From the IMG/VR virus record IMGVR_UViG_3300047510_002627, positions 56,752 to 120,751 of that record: a DNA stretch of 64,000 nucleotides. One strand, written 5' to 3'. Origin of the DNA: a virus. The position numbers and the translations under genes were made by a program. Each line of letters starts with the position of its first letter. Positions within the stretch are counted from its first letter, which is position 1. The notes beneath the pieces are model-generated. The model ran no database searches and was not told where the DNA came from. It saw only the letters and a program-made list of their open reading frames with translations. Of this stretch, positions 735 to 56,896 are shown one piece after another.

Positions 735-2201
735 ATGACTAATGTGACAATCACAAAAAAGAATGAGGTTTACATTAAGTTGGAATGTGAACCTCATGTT
801 TTATATGACTTAGAACCTCATTTCACATTTGATGTTGATGGGGCAAAGTTTATGCCGCATATGAGAAATAAGTATTGGGATGGGAAAATAAGGTTACTTA
901 GTACTCATACTGGAGAAGTTTATGCTGGACTTCTTGATAAAGTAATTGCTAAGTTAAAAAAATATGATTACGATTATACGTTTAAAGAAAACAAATATTA
1001 TGGTCTTCCATTTGAAGTAAACGATGAGATATGCCCAGAAGGGGTTGCAGACTACATGAAAAGTATTTGTAGTCACATTCCCTATGACTATCAAATTAAC
1101 GGTGTTTATGAGTGTCTGAGGTACAATAGAAAACTTATACTGAGTCCAACTGCATCTGGTAAGTCTTTAATGATTTATTCGATCATAAGATATTATGTTG
1201 CAAAGGGGAAAAGGATTCTTATTGTTTTTCCAACTACATCACTTGTCCGTCAAATGTTTAATGACTTTAAGGATTATGGTTGGAATGCTGATGAATATTG
1301 CCATTTGATTTATTCGGGTAAAGAGAAAAATACGGACATGCCCGTTACTCTTTCCACATGGCAATCTTTATATACTTTACCAAAAAGTTTCTTTGAAAAT
1401 TATGACTGTGTAATTGTAGATGAGGCGCATACTGCCAAGTCCAAATCATTAATAGACATTATGAAAAAATGTCATAATGCAAAGTATCGTTTTGGATTTA
1501 CTGGAACTCTTTCTGGAAGTAATACCCATGAGTGGGTTGTTTGTGGTTTATTTGGACCGCAGTATAAAACTATTGGAACATCTGAGATGATTGAGAAGGG
1601 AAGAGCATCTCAACTTGATATTAACTGCTTACTATTAAAACATAAACCTCAAAAATTTGATACGTATGAGGATGAAATACAATTTTTAATTACTAATGAC
1701 AAGAGAAATAAATTTATACGAAATCTTGCTCTTAGTTTAAAAGGAAATACTCTTGTTTTATTTTCAAGAGTAGAAACTCACGGACAGATACTATTTGATT
1801 TAATAAATAATCGTAAGGAAGAAAGTCGAAAGGTTTTCTTCGTTCATGGTGGAGTAGATGCAGAAGAACGAGAAGCAATAAGGCAAATTACTGAACAAGA
1901 AGATAATGCGATTATTGTTGCTTCTTATGGAGTGTTTAGCACTGGAATTTCTATAAAAAGACTTCACAATATAATTTTTGCATCACCTAGTAAATCAAGA
2001 ATAAGAAATCTTCAAAGTATTGGAAGAGTTTTAAGAAAGGGTAAAGACAAAGATAAAGCAACCCTTTATGACATTGCAGATGATACTACATACAATTCAA
2101 AGAAAAACTATACATTAAATCATTTTATAGAAAGAATTAAAATTTATGTCGAAGAAGATTTTAACTATGAAATAATACCAATCAATATAGGAGGAACCTA
2201 A
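735..2201 (+). CDS. uvsW: RNA-DNA/DNA helicase UvsW (SF2)
   Basis: SPTASGKS Walker A, DEAH, TGT, QSIGRVLR motifs. Confidence 0.96.
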   Translation: MTNVTITKKNEVYIKLECEPHVLYDLEPHFTFDVDGAKFMPHMRNKYWDGKIRLLSTHTGEVYAGLLDKVIAKLKKYDYDYTFKENKYYGLPFEVNDEICPEGVADYMKSICSHIPYDYQINGVYECLRYNRKLILSPTASGKSLMIYSIIRYYVAKGKRILIVFPTTSLVRQMFNDFKDYGWNADEYCHLIYSGKEKNTDMPVTLSTWQSLYTLPKSFFENYDCVIVDEAHTAKSKSLIDIMKKCHNAKYRFGFTGTLSGSNTHEWVVCGLFGPQYKTIGTSEMIEKGRASQLDINCLLLKHKPQKFDTYEDEIQFLITNDKRNKFIRNLALSLKGNTLVLFSRVETHGQILFDLINNRKEESRKVFFVHGGVDAEEREAIRQITEQEDNAIIVASYGVFSTGISIKRLHNIIFASPSKSRIRNLQSIGRVLRKGKDKDKATLYDIADDTTYNSKKNYTLNHFIERIKIYVEEDFNYEIIPINIGGT

Positions 2202-3240: not shown

Positions 3241-4278
3241 ATGAAAGTAGCAATTATTACTGATCAACACTTTGGAGCAAGGAAAAACTCTAAAATGTTT
3301 CATGAGCATTTTCTAAAATTTTATGAAAATGTTTTTTTCCCAACACTAGAATCCGAAGGTATTGCCACTGTCATAGACATGGGTGATACCTTTGATAGTC
3401 GTAAAGGAATTGATTTTTCTGCTCTTGCTTGGGCAAAAAATCATTACTATGATAAACTCCAAGAAATGGGGGTAAAGGTTCATACAATTGTTGGAAATCA
3501 TACTGCTTATTATAAGAATACAAATGAAATTAATGCAGTAGATTTGCTTCTAAGAGAATATTCAAATATAACAGTATACAGTAACCCAACAGAAATTAAG
3601 ATTGGAAATCTTGATGTTTTGTTATTGCCATGGATAAATGAAGAAAATGAAAAAGAAACTTACTCACTTATTGAAACTACATCTTGCATTTGTGCGATGG
3701 GGCACCTTGAGTTCTCGGGATTTAGAGTTAATTCGCAAATCGTCATGGAGCATGGTCTTTCAAGCAAATTATTTAAAAAGTTCAAACGTGTCTACTCGGG
3801 ACACTATCACACTAGATCGAATGATGGAAAAATTTTCTACTTAGGAAATCCATATGAAATTTATTGGACTGATGTTTACGATAAGAGAGGATTCACAATC
3901 TTTGATACAGAAACTCTTAAACATCAATCCATAGATAATCCTTATAATATTTTTGAAATTGTTTATTATGGAGAAGATACAACTCCAATTGAAAATAACG
4001 ATTACGAAAATAAAATTGTAAAAGTTATTGTAAAGCAAAAAGATAATCAACTTAAGTTTGAAAAATTTTTAGATAATTTGTATTCTCAAAATCCGGCAGA
4101 AGTTAAAATTGTTGAAAATTTTGAAATCAATATTAAAGACTTTGAAGAAGATATTGAATCTGAAGATACGGTCTCTATCTTAGATAGATATATTCAGGAT
4201 TCTGAAATTGATATGGATAAATCTAAAATTAGATCTATTATCAGGGAAATCTACAAGGAGTCGTGCGAGATGATTTAA
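3241..4278 (+). CDS. gp47: Recombination endonuclease subunit gp47 (Mre11/SbcD-like)
   Basis: DQHFG, GDTFD, GNH, SGHYH metallophosphoesterase motifs. Confidence 0.95.
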   Translation: MKVAIITDQHFGARKNSKMFHEHFLKFYENVFFPTLESEGIATVIDMGDTFDSRKGIDFSALAWAKNHYYDKLQEMGVKVHTIVGNHTAYYKNTNEINAVDLLLREYSNITVYSNPTEIKIGNLDVLLLPWINEENEKETYSLIETTSCICAMGHLEFSGFRVNSQIVMEHGLSSKLFKKFKRVYSGHYHTRSNDGKIFYLGNPYEIYWTDVYDKRGFTIFDTETLKHQSIDNPYNIFEIVYYGEDTTPIENNDYENKIVKVIVKQKDNQLKFEKFLDNLYSQNPAEVKIVENFEINIKDFEEDIESEDTVSILDRYIQDSEIDMDKSKIRSIIREIYKESCEMI

Positions 4279-39820: not shown

Positions 39821-40403
39821 CATTCTTGGAAAGCAATCTCTTGCTTCTGCTATTATTGTTGCTGGTGTAAATTGGATTCAATTCTGGTTAAAGAGTAAAA
39901 CCGGAATCCAGTTGGAGGAAAATATTATCTGGAAAATATATTATGAACTTGATAGATTTTCTGAGAGATTAAAACTTCAAAAAATGATAGAAAGCATTAA
40001 TGAAGAAGAATTTTTTGAATTTCTTGATGAATTTATTGAAGTCGTGGATGAGGAGACAGTAAAAAATCCAAAAATACTTGAGAACAGGCAACTTCTTTGG
40101 GAAATGTTTAAAGTTTTAAAGGAGTTTTCTAAAAAGGGTTGGGTGAAAGATAATCCTGTCACGAATGAAGTTAAATATCAAATAAATAAAAAAATAAATG
40201 AAACACCGGAGTTACTTGATTATAAAGTAAAACGGGATGTTGATAGAGCAATATCCGACTATAATAAAGAATCGGAAAAAATTCATAAACCAGAACCAGA
40301 AATAAAACCAATATTTACAGAAACTCTTGAAGGTGAAACACTTTTAGGTGGTGAAATGAGATTAAGAGCACCTTGGATTAACGAAGATGGATCAACAAGA
40401 TAA
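39810..40403 (+). CDS. Hypothetical protein with an N-terminal hydrophobic segment
   Basis: ORF track; shares a motif with the previous ORF. Confidence 0.6.
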   Translation: MRINILGKQSLASAIIVAGVNWIQFWLKSKTGIQLEENIIWKIYYELDRFSERLKLQKMIESINEEEFFEFLDEFIEVVDEETVKNPKILENRQLLWEMFKVLKEFSKKGWVKDNPVTNEVKYQINKKINETPELLDYKVKRDVDRAISDYNKESEKIHKPEPEIKPIFTETLEGETLLGGEMRLRAPWINEDGSTR

Positions 40404-40551
40404 AGAAGCACTTGACAAAGCGTATTCAGATATGATAAAAAGTTTATTTCAAAATTATGTTTTGGATCAAGATTTCAATAAGTTAAAGAGAGGTTTGACA
40501 CACCTTAAAAAATCAAGAGATACCGTCTCAGATCTCCTTCAGGGGGGTTGA
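40387..40551 (+). CDS. Small hypothetical protein (54 aa)
   Basis: MDQQDKEALDKAYSDMIKSLF...; overlaps the previous stop codon. Confidence 0.5.
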   Translation: MDQQDKEALDKAYSDMIKSLFQNYVLDQDFNKLKRGLTHLKKSRDTVSDLLQGG

Positions 40552-40576
40552 CAAAGAGAAAGTTCAGTGGTATTCT
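40548..40576 (+). promoter_or_regulatory. sigma70 promoter at the start of the tRNA cluster
   Basis: TTGACA-17-TATTCT. Confidence 0.65.
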
Positions 40577-40614
40577 TAAGAAGTGGTCAGGGCAGTCCTA
40601 AGGACACTCTCCAC

Positions 40615-40647
40615 TTGACAATCAAATTCTGATATGATATGATTGTC
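40615..40647 (+). promoter_or_regulatory. Palindromic sigma70 promoter, copy 1
   Basis: TTGACA-17-TATGAT; GACAATCA..TGATTGTC inverted repeat. Confidence 0.75.
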
Positions 40648-40651
40648 CCAT

Positions 40652-40728
40652 GTCTCGGTAGCTCAGTTGGATAGAGCATCTGCCTTCTAAGCAGTTGGTC
40701 ACAGGTTCAAGTCCTGTCCGAGACGCCA
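40652..40728 (+). tRNA. trnR: tRNA-Arg(UCU), CCA encoded
   Basis: Cloverleaf; anticodon loop CT-TCT-AA; GGTTCAAGTCC T-arm. Confidence 0.93.
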
Positions 40729-40801
40729 GGGGAATTAGCTCAGTTGGTAGAGCATCGCCTTTGCAAGGCGGGTGTCAGGAGTTCAAGTCTCCTATTCTCC
40801 A
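40729..40801 (+). tRNA. trnA: tRNA-Ala(UGC)
   Basis: GGGGAAT/ATTCTCC acceptor with G3-U70; TT-TGC-AA loop; directly abuts tRNA-Arg. Confidence 0.93.
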
Positions 40802-40802
40802 C

Positions 40803-40835
40803 TTGACAATTTGAGGTTTATACCTTATAATTGTC
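40803..40835 (+). promoter_or_regulatory. Palindromic sigma70 promoter, copy 2
   Basis: TTGACA-17-TATAAT; GACAATT..AATTGTC inverted repeat. Confidence 0.8.
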
Positions 40836-40845
40836 TCAACCCAAT

Positions 40846-40917
40846 GGGACTGTCGCCTATGGGTTAAGGCCCACTGCTTATAACGGTGTGAACTGAGTTC
40901 AAGTCTCAGCAGTCCTA
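40846..40917 (+). tRNA. trnI: tRNA-Ile(UAU)
   Basis: GGGACTG/CAGTCCT acceptor; CACTG-CT-TAT-AA-CGGTG; CTGAG-TTCAAGT-CTCAG. Confidence 0.88.
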
Positions 40918-40918
40918 C

Positions 40919-40951
40919 TTGACAATCATATTAAAATATGATATGATTGTC
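40919..40951 (+). promoter_or_regulatory. Palindromic sigma70 promoter, copy 3
   Basis: TTGACA-17-TATGAT; 11-bp inverted repeat GACAATCATAT..ATATGATTGTC. Confidence 0.78.
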
Positions 40952-40954
40952 TTC

Positions 40955-41065
40955 TGCTTATCTATTTTATAGTAGGTTTAAAGGATAAGCAACAGTAAAC
41001 CTACTTGAAAAAAGGAAAAGTATGAAGCCCGTGAATTTTAAATTCACAATTTGCATCTGCTTTTC
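40955..41065 (+). ncRNA. Candidate small RNA: H-type pseudoknot followed by a long hairpin
   Basis: TGCTTATC/GATAAGCA and AGTAGGTTTA/TAAACCTACT stems are interleaved; GAAAAGTA/TGCTTTTC encloses GTGAATT/AATTCAC. Confidence 0.55.
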
Positions 41066-41071
41066 TTAATT

Positions 41072-41142
41072 GCGGGCATGGTGTAGCGGTAACATCTGAG
41101 CCTTCCAAGCTCCAGTCACCGGTTCGATCCCGGTTGCCCGCT
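41072..41142 (+). tRNA. trnG: tRNA-Gly(UCC)
   Basis: GCGGGCA/TGCCCGC acceptor; CT-TCC-AA loop; GGTTCGATCCC. Confidence 0.93.
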
Positions 41143-41166
41143 CTTGGAGATCGACGGATTTCCAAA

Positions 41167-41354
41167 GGGTGTGACAGAAAAATCTATGTGGTCAAGCACT
41201 GGATATTGTATAGTAAGGTAGGGGTGGTGCCCGCTGTAAAACTGGGAGACCAGAGTTACAGAATCCAATGCCAAGGAACCTAAAAGTGCTGGAATAATTA
41301 CGTTGTCAGTGAGACCTTCCAGTTGTGAGTATGACAGAATCTCACCACCCACCA
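41167..41354 (+). ncRNA. Highly structured ~188-nt RNA with tRNA-like ends (GGGTG...CACCC-ACCA)
   Basis: Terminal stem + ACCA; T-arm-like GTGAG/CTCAC; GAGA-tetraloop arm; potential loop-loop pairings. Confidence 0.65.
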
Positions 41355-41358
41355 AAAT

Positions 41359-41430
41359 TCCTCTGTAGCTCAGCGGTAGAGCGAGCGGCTGTTAACCGCT
41401 TGGTCGCAAGTTCGATCCTTGCCGGGGGAG
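41359..41430 (+). tRNA. trnN: tRNA-Asn(GUU)
   Basis: TCCTCTG/CGGGGGA acceptor; AGCGG-CT-GTT-AA-CCGCT. Confidence 0.93.
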
Positions 41431-41469
41431 TTGAAAGGATTGGAAATGTCCGATTCTTTCAAATTGAAA

Positions 41470-41626
41470 ATGCTGGACAAACTTTGGAGGTAACTCCCAC
41501 CCCATTTGGGTGCCTTCCTGAGAACAGGGAAAATAAGGTTTGGTGTTTTCTCTTATCATTGCCCTCTAATGCAGTGAAAGTTGGAGAAGTGATCCTGCGG
41601 ATTCGTCCAAGAGCTCTCCTTCTCCT
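41470..41626 (+). ncRNA. Multi-stem structured RNA, possibly the manA RNA motif
   Basis: ACTTT/AAAGT closes a junction of several hairpins; TGGAC/GTCCA pseudoknot; GGAGAAG/CTTCTCC; manA RNAs are described in cyanophages near tRNAs, but the family is not verified here. Confidence 0.6.
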
Positions 41627-41629
41627 AAA

Positions 41630-41701
41630 GGGCGATTAACTCAGCGGTAGAGTGCCTCCTTTACACGGAGATGGTCACTGGTTCAAATCCAGTATCGCCC
41701 A
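41630..41701 (+). tRNA. trnV: tRNA-Val(UAC)
   Basis: GGGCGAT/ATCGCCC acceptor; TT-TAC-AC loop; GGTTCAAATCC. Confidence 0.93.
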
Positions 41702-41727
41702 TTTTTTCCAAATTTTACTTATATATA

Positions 41728-41928
41728 ATGAAAGGAAAAACAATTAAAAAATGGGTCCAGAAACCGCTTAGGTTTCATCATCAGGATATTCATGAAGAAT
41801 TAGAAGAAATTAAGGGGTTGATAGGATATGTTAGTGGTCAGATGCAAGAGTTGCGGGATAGAGTTGACAGGATCAACGAAAACACAAGTTTGTGGTTGTC
41901 CAAACAAAATGGAACTGAAGGAGAATAA
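41728..41928 (+). CDS. Hypothetical protein overlapping the next ORF
   Basis: MKGKTIKKW..RFHHQDIHEEL; ~100-nt overlap in another frame. Confidence 0.4.
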   Translation: MKGKTIKKWVQKPLRFHHQDIHEELEEIKGLIGYVSGQMQELRDRVDRINENTSLWLSKQNGTEGE

Positions 41929-42085
41929 AGTCTCCGCAGTCGATTTGACTCAGGTTGTTGTGACTAATTCCGAGTTGTCTAAAAAGTCTAAAAAGCAACA
42001 AAAATTTCTTTCAGATCAAGATCTTGCTTTTCAAGAAGCAAGAAAAGCACGAAAAGTGAGAAAATTGGATTTTGAAATCCGATAA
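41828..42085 (+). CDS. Small Zn-ribbon-like conserved cyanophage protein
   Basis: CKSC..CGCPN; RKVRKLDFEIR. Confidence 0.7.
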   Translation: MLVVRCKSCGIELTGSTKTQVCGCPNKMELKENKVSAVDLTQVVVTNSELSKKSKKQQKFLSDQDLAFQEARKARKVRKLDFEIR

Positions 42086-42090
42086 TATTT

Positions 42091-42174
42091 GGAGAGGTGG
42101 CCGAGTGGTTTATGGCAGCAGTCTTGAAAACTGCCGTGTTAATAGCACCGTGGGTTCAAATCCCACCCTCTCCG
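42091..42174 (+). tRNA. trnS: tRNA-Ser(UGA)
   Basis: GGAGAGG/CCTCTCC acceptor; CT-TGA-AA loop; long variable arm. Confidence 0.93.
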
Positions 42175-42218
42175 TTCTTAATATTTTCTTCAACACTGTT
42201 ACTACATGAACACATTTG

Positions 42219-42247
42219 TTGACAATAGAAATTATTTCTAGTATAAC
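42219..42247 (+). promoter_or_regulatory. sigma70 promoter
   Basis: TTGACA-17-TATAAC. Confidence 0.65.
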
Positions 42248-42276
42248 TATATAATGACCTCTATTGATGCAGATTG

Positions 42277-42426
42277 ATGGACGAAGAAAGGATCCAACAA
42301 ATGATAGATCAAGCAATTGATCGTCACAATAAAACAGCATCCCTGATTAGTGCTTGCATTGGATCAGTGTTGCTGTTTTTTTATGCACATGGAGTAATTT
42401 GTTTGGTCAATAAAATTACTGGTTAA
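42277..42426 (+). CDS. Small membrane protein (49 aa)
   Basis: MIDQAIDRHN..ASLIS...FYAHG. Confidence 0.6.
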   Translation: MDEERIQQMIDQAIDRHNKTASLISACIGSVLLFFYAHGVICLVNKITG

Positions 42427-56057: not shown

Positions 56058-56896
56058 TGAATAAAAGGCAAATTTATGGAATTGGCAGTCTTATAGATAT
56101 GATTGCTCAATATCCTCATATATTTTGTTCCAGCGGAACTAACAAACCTAAAGAATATGAATGGTCTTCAAAGACTGATGAAAATCATTTAATTTTTATT
56201 GATCAATATATTTTTAATTCATCATCATTTAAAAATAAGTTTAAATTTGCATGGTTAATGGAACCAGAATGTGTAATTCCAAATGTCTATAGACATGTGG
56301 AAAAAAATATTGAAGACTTTGATCTTATTTTTACTCATGATAAACAAATCTTAAGTCTTTCCGAAAAGGCAAAGTTTACTCCTTTTGGTGGTATTTGGAT
56401 TGAACCAGAAAATAGATTTGTTCAAGAAAAAAATAAATTAAATTCTTTTCTTTTTTCTGAAAAGCGTTCAACTCCTGGACATAGATTTAGACATGAAGTA
56501 GCAAAAAATATCACTGGGGTTAATATTGACATGTTTGGTAATGGTGTTGGAAAACATCTTGAATCGAAAACAACATCCTTAAAGGATTATATGTTTTCAA
56601 TCATTATAGAAAATTCAAAAACTGATTATTGGTTCACCGAAAAAATAATAGATTGTTTTGCTGTGGGAACTATTCCAATATATTGGGGTTGTCCATCGAT
56701 AGGAAATTTTTTTGATACTAATGGGATTATTGTTTTTGACACAATTCAAGAACTTGAACAAATATTAAATAATTTGTCACCAGAGTATTACTATGATAGA
56801 CTTGATAGTATAAACAAAAACTTTGAAATTTCCAAAAAGTATTGGATTGCGGATGATTATATTTACTCTTATCTGAAGGATTATGATATCATTTAA
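56054..56896 (+). CDS. GT10 alpha-1,3/4-fucosyltransferase-like protein
   Basis: Y.FSI.IENS....WFTEKI...F..GTIPIYWG motif. Confidence 0.85.
   Translation: MMNKRQIYGIGSLIDMIAQYPHIFCSSGTNKPKEYEWSSKTDENHLIFIDQYIFNSSSFKNKFKFAWLMEPECVIPNVYRHVEKNIEDFDLIFTHDKQILSLSEKAKFTPFGGIWIEPENRFVQEKNKLNSFLFSEKRSTPGHRFRHEVAKNITGVNIDMFGNGVGKHLESKTTSLKDYMFSIIIENSKTDYWFTEKIIDCFAVGTIPIYWGCPSIGNFFDTNGIIVFDTIQELEQILNNLSPEYYYDRLDSINKNFEISKKYWIADDYIYSYLKDYDII

Follow-up and report, generated by a model that had tools for sequence, protein, structure and literature searches.

A manA RNA gene between two tRNA genes of a T4-like cyanophage

We analysed a 64,000-nucleotide stretch of viral DNA (positions 56,752 to 120,751 of IMG/VR virus record IMGVR_UViG_3300047510_002627, referred to here as the window) and identified positions 41145-41355 on its plus strand as the manA RNA gene of a T4-like cyanophage. 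The gene lies between tRNA-Gly and tRNA-Asn, and our overall reading, which we consider probable, is of a discrete manA RNA that would be released by tRNA processing and would self-associate through kissing loops. The manA family, its formation of cages and one annotated copy flanked by tRNAs are already public, and for sixteen years the family has been filed as a probable riboswitch. A first-pass annotation, made from the sequence alone, had described a structured RNA here that it could not assign to a family. This 'unassignable' RNA belongs to a catalogued family, and the new information lies in its context.

A full-length manA RNA in a tRNA array

The match to manA RNA (Rfam RF01745) reaches 104.9 bits, well above the gathering score of 55.2, and spans model positions 1-192 of 192 without truncation (E 1.3e-27, local scan). 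A match of this strength answers the question of family and removes the novelty of the RNA itself. It is one of eight gathering-level matches in the whole window (Rfam 15), the others being seven tRNAs, and the only manA copy in the 120,751-base virus record; the manA model matched none of 14 control genomes. In the window copy 51 of the 53 Rfam consensus pairs are standard, the exceptions being a G-G at 41188/41202 and a G-A at 41213/41284, and the conserved unpaired words of the family, the GUGACNGAA junction and GGUGGUG of L5, are both present. L7 reads GCCA, compared with ACCA in the family. The predicted fold of the element is -65.1 kcal/mol (z -2.78), and one of 200 shuffles was equally good. 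The nearest phage sequence in the phage collection is the manA annotated in Synechococcus phage S-CREM1, with 77.1% identity over 276 nt. The neighbouring genes of the locus encode a tail lysozyme, CpeT and 6-phosphogluconate dehydrogenase, and we assign the virus to the T4-like cyanomyoviruses because these genes and the nearest phage sequence fit that assignment. Two open reading frames (ORFs) overlap the element, of 79 aa on the minus strand and 49 aa on the plus strand, both mechanical.

Much of what the first-pass annotation had described proved accurate. It had seen an element enriched in GC between tRNA-Gly and tRNA-Asn, which agrees with a G+C content of 45.7% compared with 34.6% for the window and with the flanks called by ARAGORN. 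The words that it quoted are all in place: GGGTG at 41167-71, CACCC at 41346-50, ACCA at 41351-54, GTGAG/CTCAC at 41325-29/41341-45, TGACAGAA at 41172 and 41332, TTGTCA at 41303, TGGTG at 41225, TGCCA at 41269, GGTC at 41190 and GACC at 41313. The helices that it listed are those of the Rfam manA consensus. Its account of the extent held for the structured element but not for the start, which it had set at 41167; the family model adds a hairpin at 41145-41164 and so begins 22 nt earlier, at 41145. The parts of the locus are listed below, all on the plus strand. Helices are numbered P1-P9 from 5' to 3' by their order, and L6 is taken as the GNRA loop, matching the cryo-EM preprint on manA discussed below.

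40919..40947, plus strand: sigma70-like promoter TTGACA-17-TATGAT, 11 of 12 consensus matches, heading the unit tRNA-Gly, manA, tRNA-Asn
41072..41143, plus strand: tRNA-Gly(tcc) by ARAGORN (Rfam tRNA 41072-41142, 58.1 bits); it lacks an encoded CCA and ends right at the 5' hairpin of manA
41145..41355, plus strand: full-length manA RNA, RF01745, by Rfam
41145..41164, plus strand: P1, the 5' hairpin, 6 bp with a CGACGG cap, model positions 1-20 of the match
41167..41171, plus strand: 5' strand of the P2 closing helix, GGGTG, paired with 41346-41350
41172..41179, plus strand: junction word TGACAGAA, almost invariant across the family, whose consensus is GTGACNGAA; copies of the tRNA-embedded clade are recognised by the A at 41176
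41190..41193, plus strand: L3 word GGTC, pairing with GACC at 41313-41316 as a pseudoknot or a contact in trans
41213..41284, plus strand: multibranch domain, in which P4 (41213-19/41278-84) encloses P5, P6 and P7
41221..41232, plus strand: P5 hairpin with L5 loop GTGGTG (41224-41229), from the Rfam match
41234..41261, plus strand: P6, extended in the window's clade, with GNRA tetraloop GAGA (41246-41249), from the Rfam match
41264..41277, plus strand: P7 hairpin with L7 loop AATGCCAA, GCCA standing for the family's ACCA
41288..41323, plus strand: P8, with outer stem 41288-94/41317-23, inner stem 41298-301/41309-12, L8 GTTGTCA at 41302-08 and internal loop GACC at 41313-16
41325..41345, plus strand: P9 hairpin with an 11-nt L9 loop (41330-41340), in which TGACAG at 41332-37 pairs with TTGTCA at 41303-08
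41346..41350, plus strand: 3' strand of the P2 closing helix, CACCC, paired with 41167-41171
41351..41358, plus strand: single-stranded tail ACCAAAAT, reaching the putative RNase P site at the tRNA-Asn 5' end
41358..41431, plus strand: tRNA-Asn(gtt) by ARAGORN (Rfam tRNA 41359-41430, 64.2 bits)

The spacers are 1-2 nt from tRNA-Gly to manA and 7-8 nt from manA to tRNA-Asn. On the plus strand from 40947 to 42400 we found no terminator-like sites except the palindrome of the promoter itself.

The first-pass annotation had also proposed that the RNA acts as a tRNA mimic, a decoy or a self-cleaving ribozyme. In the window copy the closing helix, with P9 stacked on it and ACCA after it, does superficially resemble an acceptor/T minihelix, and in 73 of 100 manA loci the first letter past the closing helix is an A (ACC 51, ACA 16, AAC 6). 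Yet the tail is not conserved, with ACC in 51 and the full ACCA in only 12 of these loci, and TCT or TCC in 20. The hairpin described as T-arm-like carries a loop of 11 nt, L9 being an 11-12 nt loop that pairs with L8 and not a 7-nt T-loop. ARAGORN and the Rfam tRNA and tmRNA models gave no call in 41144-41357, in keeping with the annotation's own view that the element is neither a tRNA nor a tmRNA, and the ribozyme models in Rfam gave no match at E up to 1 within 40300-42400. Nothing supports a ribozyme, and we regard this whole group of explanations as scarcely credible.

The 5' boundary of manA in two clades

Homologues were collected in two pattern scans of IMG/VR, which gave at least 120 loci and 49 loci (the second scan was complete). 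Both search patterns fix L5, and fractions over the sampled loci are not population estimates. Covariance models built here detected manA in the window, in 65 of the loci from the first scan and in 46 of the 54 sources searched for the second sample. The first of these models, R1 (a MAFFT alignment with its structure taken via the window row), served for copy finding only, having P7 and the inner part of P8 misregistered, and was rebuilt as R2. Rfam confirmed all 24 loci submitted to it as manA, at 100-197 bits. The final set among the matches listed comprises 100 loci, including three isolate phages, with 84 distinct core sequences.

A single letter of the junction divides the family into a TGACAGAA clade, to which the window copy belongs (46 rows), and a TGACTGAA/TGACCGAA clade (54 rows). 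In the TGACAGAA clade 39 of the 44 evaluable rows have a tRNA whose 3' end lies -1 to +2 nt ahead of the 5' hairpin; of the other five, four carry a promoter there and share one sequence, and the fifth is unclear. Downstream, 21 of 45 rows have a tRNA that begins within 10 nt of the end of the closing helix. The upstream tRNA can be Ile, Arg, Gly, Met, Ala or Leu and the downstream tRNA Pro, Asn, Val, Gly, His, Met or Thr, and the same sandwich occurs in isolates, as Leu, manA, Asn in S-CREM1 and as Arg, manA, Thr in RB11-B and RN05-S. With flanks this varied around a shared sandwich, it is therefore the arrangement, and not a particular tRNA, that is kept. One further locus, L132 (369-603, minus strand), has a manA core identical to that of the window and the same upstream tRNA-Gly, followed by different downstream letters and no tRNA within 10 nt. 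In this pair manA moves as a unit relative to its 3' neighbour.

In contrast, a TTGACA-N16-19-TATAAT promoter, scored with a mismatch-tolerant test, precedes manA in 52 of the 53 evaluable loci of the TGACTGAA/TGACCGAA clade, and a tRNA abuts the 5' end in none of its 54 rows. The -10 box ends 20-32 nt upstream of the closing helix, a distance that puts the start of transcription at the 5' hairpin. Five loci of this clade have a tRNA directly downstream, and in four an intrinsic terminator follows right after manA; these four are therefore stand-alone genes. A tRNA end in one clade and a promoter in the other stand at the same position, and the 5' hairpin should therefore be the 5' end of the RNA in both. 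As one clade is a tRNA trailer or leader while its sister has a promoter, and sometimes a terminator, at the same boundaries, we argue that manA functions as a free RNA whose ends are defined. The first-pass annotation had likewise proposed a discrete RNA gene with ends made by tRNA-processing enzymes, and comparison of the two clades backs this proposal strongly. The main texts that we searched contain no statement on a tRNA-embedded clade or on a promoter and a tRNA being equivalent at the 5' boundary, although the supplements may hold one.

Downstream of many promoter-type copies, by about 10-50 nt and mostly after G, we also observed a conserved element, ACCTAAGATGCAAC ... GGGCAGATGG (loci L024, L027, L029, L034, L052, L068, L084, L103, L108, L115 and L119). 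L034 also has an Rfam tRNA match 50 nt downstream (3764-3834, 52.3 bits), without an ARAGORN tRNA call.

RNase P makes the 5' ends of tRNAs, and RNase Z makes the 3' ends of tRNA precursors that lack an encoded CCA. Given these established roles, a Gly-manA-Asn precursor should therefore yield a free RNA. In the mechanism that we propose, the sigma70 promoter at 40919-40947, which is of the early type, would drive joint transcription of tRNA-Gly, manA and tRNA-Asn. A cut by RNase Z or an equivalent enzyme behind the discriminator of tRNA-Gly, and one by RNase P where tRNA-Asn begins, would then leave a free RNA of ~215 nt (about 41143-41358). Co-transcription with the two tRNAs is very likely in our view, and for the RNase Z and RNase P sites at the tRNA boundaries we have equally high confidence. 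Contigs identical to the window occur in RNA libraries from three studies, at 41155-41350, 41177-41345 and 41161-41249, and bear on presence only, not on transcription or ends. All three stop short of the flanking tRNAs; the uncovered part is no evidence and we do not count it as support for processing. In a separate observation, contig record 2 of run X1, which comes from a relative and aligns at window positions 41323-41350, carries a manA 3' end, then 6 nt, then letters resembling a manA-type 5' hairpin (stem, CGACGG cap, stem). This contig hints at tandem manA copies.

An RNA so closely joined to tRNAs could instead be a structured spacer that serves only the maturation or stability of the tRNAs, by guiding RNase P/Z or blocking exonucleases, and is functionless once released. 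The spacing of -1 to +2 nt in most of the clade would suit such a role, and other spacers in the array are structured too, that at 41432-41629 having a z of -4.03. We judge this improbable. In the other clade 52 of the 53 loci have an RNA with the same conserved loops behind its own promoter and without a tRNA; in the window's clade manA is retained while its tRNA neighbours differ; and the loop-loop complementarity kept by compensatory changes, described below, would not be needed by a mere spacer.

The first proposal made for manA was of a cis-acting riboswitch or leader, which at this locus would control transcription of the downstream tRNAs. The text of Weinberg et al. (2010, Genome Biol 11:R31; PMC2864571) rates the motif as a probable riboswitch, marks a 'pseudoknot?' and, like Rfam, classes it as cis-regulatory, from its position in 5' untranslated regions (UTRs) of mannose/fructose, nucleotide-synthesis, ibpA and photosynthesis genes. 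It was this arrangement with an ORF downstream that first suggested cis-regulation for manA (PMC2864571). In our set an ORF starts no more than 80 nt downstream in 47 of 100 loci, nine of which have an upstream tRNA, and a T-run follows right after the closing helix in many promoter-clade copies. The window copy, however, does not have the 5' UTR position before a protein gene on which the 'Cis-reg' label is based, a difference of context only, and a role as a classical leader acting in cis on a protein gene is impossible for it. Only 7-8 nt separate it from the next gene, which is a tRNA, and there is no terminator, T-run or ribosome-binding site to occlude. With no terminator-like site and only these few nucleotides before tRNA-Asn there is no expression platform, and a cis riboswitch role at this locus is therefore unlikely. 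Across the family, a tRNA lies directly downstream in 26 of 100 loci and a constitutive-looking terminator in four, and in 39 loci manA is itself the 3' trailer of a tRNA. Taken together we consider control in cis very improbable here.

Loop pairings and the proposed self-association

The structure was tested on an alignment of 62 homologues, A4, which was fitted to the nested structure, and so favours nested helices, and not to the three loop pairings. In this alignment 90.0% of cells are paired, and the figure falls to 38-44% once the 3' partners are shifted by 1-3 columns. Covariation among homologues, which the first-pass annotation had named as a check, is extensive: 51 of 71 pairs change on both sides, and none of 500 shuffles matched any observed measure. 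All six pairs of P1 change on both sides (82.6% of cells paired), as do 6 of 6 in P4 (97.8%) and 7 of 7 in P8 (98.4%). In P9, 4 of 5 pairs covary with 100% of cells paired, and the closing helix P2 is 99.7% paired with compensatory change in 4 of 5 pairs, for example GAATG/CATTC in locus L003.

Three pairings between loops, each of which had been suggested by the first-pass annotation, were also recovered in the alignment. The L3-J8 pairing (GGTC 41190/GACC 41313) is formed in 100% of cells with compensatory change at 2 of 4 positions (column 55/218: CG48 AU7 UA7; column 56/217: AU54 CG4 UA3 GU1), and from this pattern of substitution we take the contact to be real. The L8-L9 pairing (TTGTCA 41303/TGACAG 41332) shows compensatory change in 5 of 7 pairs. 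Within the window's clade L9 has seven different centres, the main pairings being TGACAG/TTGTCA, TAATGT/ACATTA, TGATAG/CTATCA, TAGTAG/TTACTA and AGCC/GGCT, and at least 6 bp form in 24 of 31 distinct RNAs compared with 144 of 694 mismatched combinations. The family-wide control is weak, with at least 5 bp in 66 of 84 cognate and 3569 of 6382 non-cognate combinations (means 5.37 and 4.77), because compatible words are common to many members and loops rich in A and U pair by chance; cognate and non-cognate loops are told apart only when the comparison is confined to the clade. The L5-L7 pairing (TGGTG 41225/TGCCA 41269) is conserved, with 90.5% of cells paired and no variation to test, an invariance that arises in part because the search patterns fixed L5. 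The window copy is the single U-G exception at column 94/160 (UA 61, UG 1 in 62 sequences). With GCCA in L7 instead of ACCA, its L5-L7 pairing therefore has 5 bp including two G-U pairs; L8-L9 has 6 bp, and this complementarity is kept in the clade.

A further idea of the first-pass annotation, that the two copies of TGACAGAA form a switch by competing for TTGTCA, was not borne out. The 5' copy pairs with L8 in 46.4% of cells, with its central pairs formed in only 7 of 59 and 2 of 57. We attribute the duplicate to coincidence, since a near-invariant junction word (GTGACNGAA) happens to meet the L9 loop of this copy.

One part of the published fold drew our attention. P3 in the Rfam register is paired in 89.0% of cells, and this register shares bases with L3-J8 (columns 53-55), such that the two pairings compete. 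An outer-shifted register is paired in 72.0% of cells overall and in 100% for its first three pairs (A4 columns 46-48 with 64-66, the hairpin being window 41183-41204), which form in every sequence and covary. The published secondary structure of the P3 hairpin may, on this alignment, need revision.

Recent structural work suggests what the loops may do. The main text of a cryo-EM preprint (bioRxiv 10.64898/2026.07.01.735769) reports that manA_A0F1 forms a 60-subunit T=1 cage and four other members decamers or octamers, all pentamer-based and joined by intermolecular kissing loops L5-L7' and L8-L9', with contacts L6-P6', L5-L7' and L3-L8' in Photobacterium manA. By our mapping, the loop pairings noted in the first-pass annotation would correspond to these kissing loops. 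In the proposed mechanism the freed RNA would fold into a nine-helix core closed by GGGTG/CACCC, display the complementary pairs L5/L7 and L8/L9, and self-associate through them as in the cages of the preprint. A free RNA with fixed ends and conserved self-complementary loop pairs is what those assemblies require. For self-assembly of the window copy in infected cells, argued by analogy with these members, we would put the chances as about even.

The discrete, processed RNA may instead act as a monomer, with L5-L7, L8-L9 and L3-J8 formed within one molecule to shape a small-molecule or protein site; in that case high concentrations of RNA and Mg would account for the oligomers. The covariation that we observe is just as compatible with intramolecular pairing. 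Unpaired nucleotides that do not vary are numerous in the family (GTGACNGAA, GGTGGTG), as they are in ligand-binding RNAs, the text of Weinberg et al. rates manA a probable riboswitch (PMC2864571), and the preprint describes assembly at 10 mM MgCl2 and ~3 mg/mL RNA. However, the preprint also gives defined stoichiometries of 8, 10 and 60 for five members, with the kissing loops resolved as intermolecular, and the literature that we found reports no ligand for manA. We therefore see a monomer as a serious but unlikely alternative to self-association.

Several points count against release followed by self-association, and the ORFs found downstream of so many copies, in a sample drawn with patterns that fix L5, are among them. 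Covariation is blind to whether a pairing is intra- or intermolecular, and two of the five L5-L7 pairs in the window copy are G-U. The mapping of L5, L7, L8 and L9 onto the window comes from helix order and the GNRA identity of L6. Assembly is described in the preprint in vitro only, under the conditions given above, and for other members of the family (10.64898/2026.07.01.735769). Finally, contig X3, from a relative with 10 differences, bridges manA into tRNA-Asn, and a precursor or DNA must thus also be present.

Neighbouring RNAs and comparison with known systems

The surroundings of manA hold further structured sequences. The 198-nt spacer from tRNA-Asn to tRNA-Val (41432-41629, plus strand) folds at -67.7 kcal/mol (z -4.03), a value reached by none of 200 shuffles, and together with tRNA-Asn is 79.8% identical to Synechococcus phage S-SRM01. 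We tried it as a second manA and rejected it, as Rfam gave no match there at E up to 1 and R1 and R2 match the window only once. It is likely to be a second, uncatalogued structured RNA. Upstream, four sigma70-like promoters lie within 40548-40947 (plus strand), each just upstream of a tRNA or tRNA group, and three of them (40615, 40803 and 40919) have 11-12 of 12 consensus matches and sit inside inverted repeats. The 153-nt Ile-Gly spacer (40919-41071) has 27.5% GC, and its part from the third of these promoters to tRNA-Gly (40948-41071, plus strand) is an AT-rich leader with long inverted repeats and no Rfam match.

Other manA loci are also rich in RNA genes and motifs. The IMG/VR phage contig L079 has at least 17 tRNAs around its manA and, inside the tRNA array (1705-1955, plus strand), a match to permuted cyanobacterial tmRNA (RF01851, 116.6 bits; RF04321, 80.1 bits). 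The wcaG RNA (RF01761) lies within a few kb of manA in L003, L125 and L134, glutamine riboswitch aptamers lie near it in L007, L052 and L084 (glnA RNA) and in L115 (Glutamine-II), and S-CREM1 likewise carries other cyanophage RNA motifs near manA. This suggests ncRNA-rich islands around tRNA arrays.

The window copy shares with described manA RNAs (RF01745) the same helices, the invariant junction and loop words, and a host range of T4-like cyanophages and marine metagenomes. It differs in lying between two tRNAs and not in the 5' UTR of a protein gene, and from the majority of the family in a P6 that is ~12 nt longer, GCCA for ACCA in L7, and A for U at 41176 in the junction. The manA of S-CREM1 (OP535465, 10215-10429) has the same sandwich of tRNA, manA and tRNA-Asn and the same L8/L9 words as the window, but its upstream tRNA is tRNA-Leu instead of tRNA-Gly and its L7 differs. 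Table 4 of the report on that phage lists this manA as cis-regulatory, and the passages on manA there leave the tRNA flanks without comment (PMC9964418). The assemblies seen by cryo-EM belong to the same family, and by our mapping their named loop pairs would fall on the conserved or covarying loops of the window's clade. The word 'tRNA' does not occur in the main text of that preprint (10.64898/2026.07.01.735769). S-CREM1 or RB11-B on cultured Synechococcus would be a tractable system for asking whether manA cages exist in vivo.

The release that we propose has parallels elsewhere. Non-tRNA RNAs are freed by tRNA punctuation in mascRNA/MALAT1 and in the tRNA-miRNA units of gammaherpesviruses, where flanking RNase P and RNase Z cuts set the ends. 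Those systems are eukaryotic or belong to animal viruses, whereas here the same logic would operate in a cyanophage and would release a large folded domain.

There is also a likeness in context to ROOL and GOLLD, phage and prophage RNAs that assemble into closed cages made of RNA alone and occur 'often near tRNA islands', in the text of Kretsch et al. (2025, Nature 643:1135, PMC12286853). Neither has an Rfam match in the window in the whole-window gathering scan. Both are unrelated to manA in sequence and fold and 3-4 times longer, and the likeness is one of function and context only, not of membership. By analogy, manA may act in a similar way to ROOL and GOLLD. A self-assembling cage needs its RNA to be free and to have defined ends, and the place of manA here mirrors the habit of these RNAs in tRNA islands. 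It is possible, though we think it distinctly unlikely, that ROOL and GOLLD are joined by manA as a third phage RNA family, unrelated to either, that is both cage-forming and wired into tRNA islands, its RNA in this clade being excised by RNase Z/P and assembling in the infected cell into pentamer-based shells with a job linked to tRNAs or translation. If so, the shells might, for example, hold or shield phage tRNAs, or trap a host factor acting on tRNAs, and the recurrent link between cages and tRNA arrays would be functional and not accidental.

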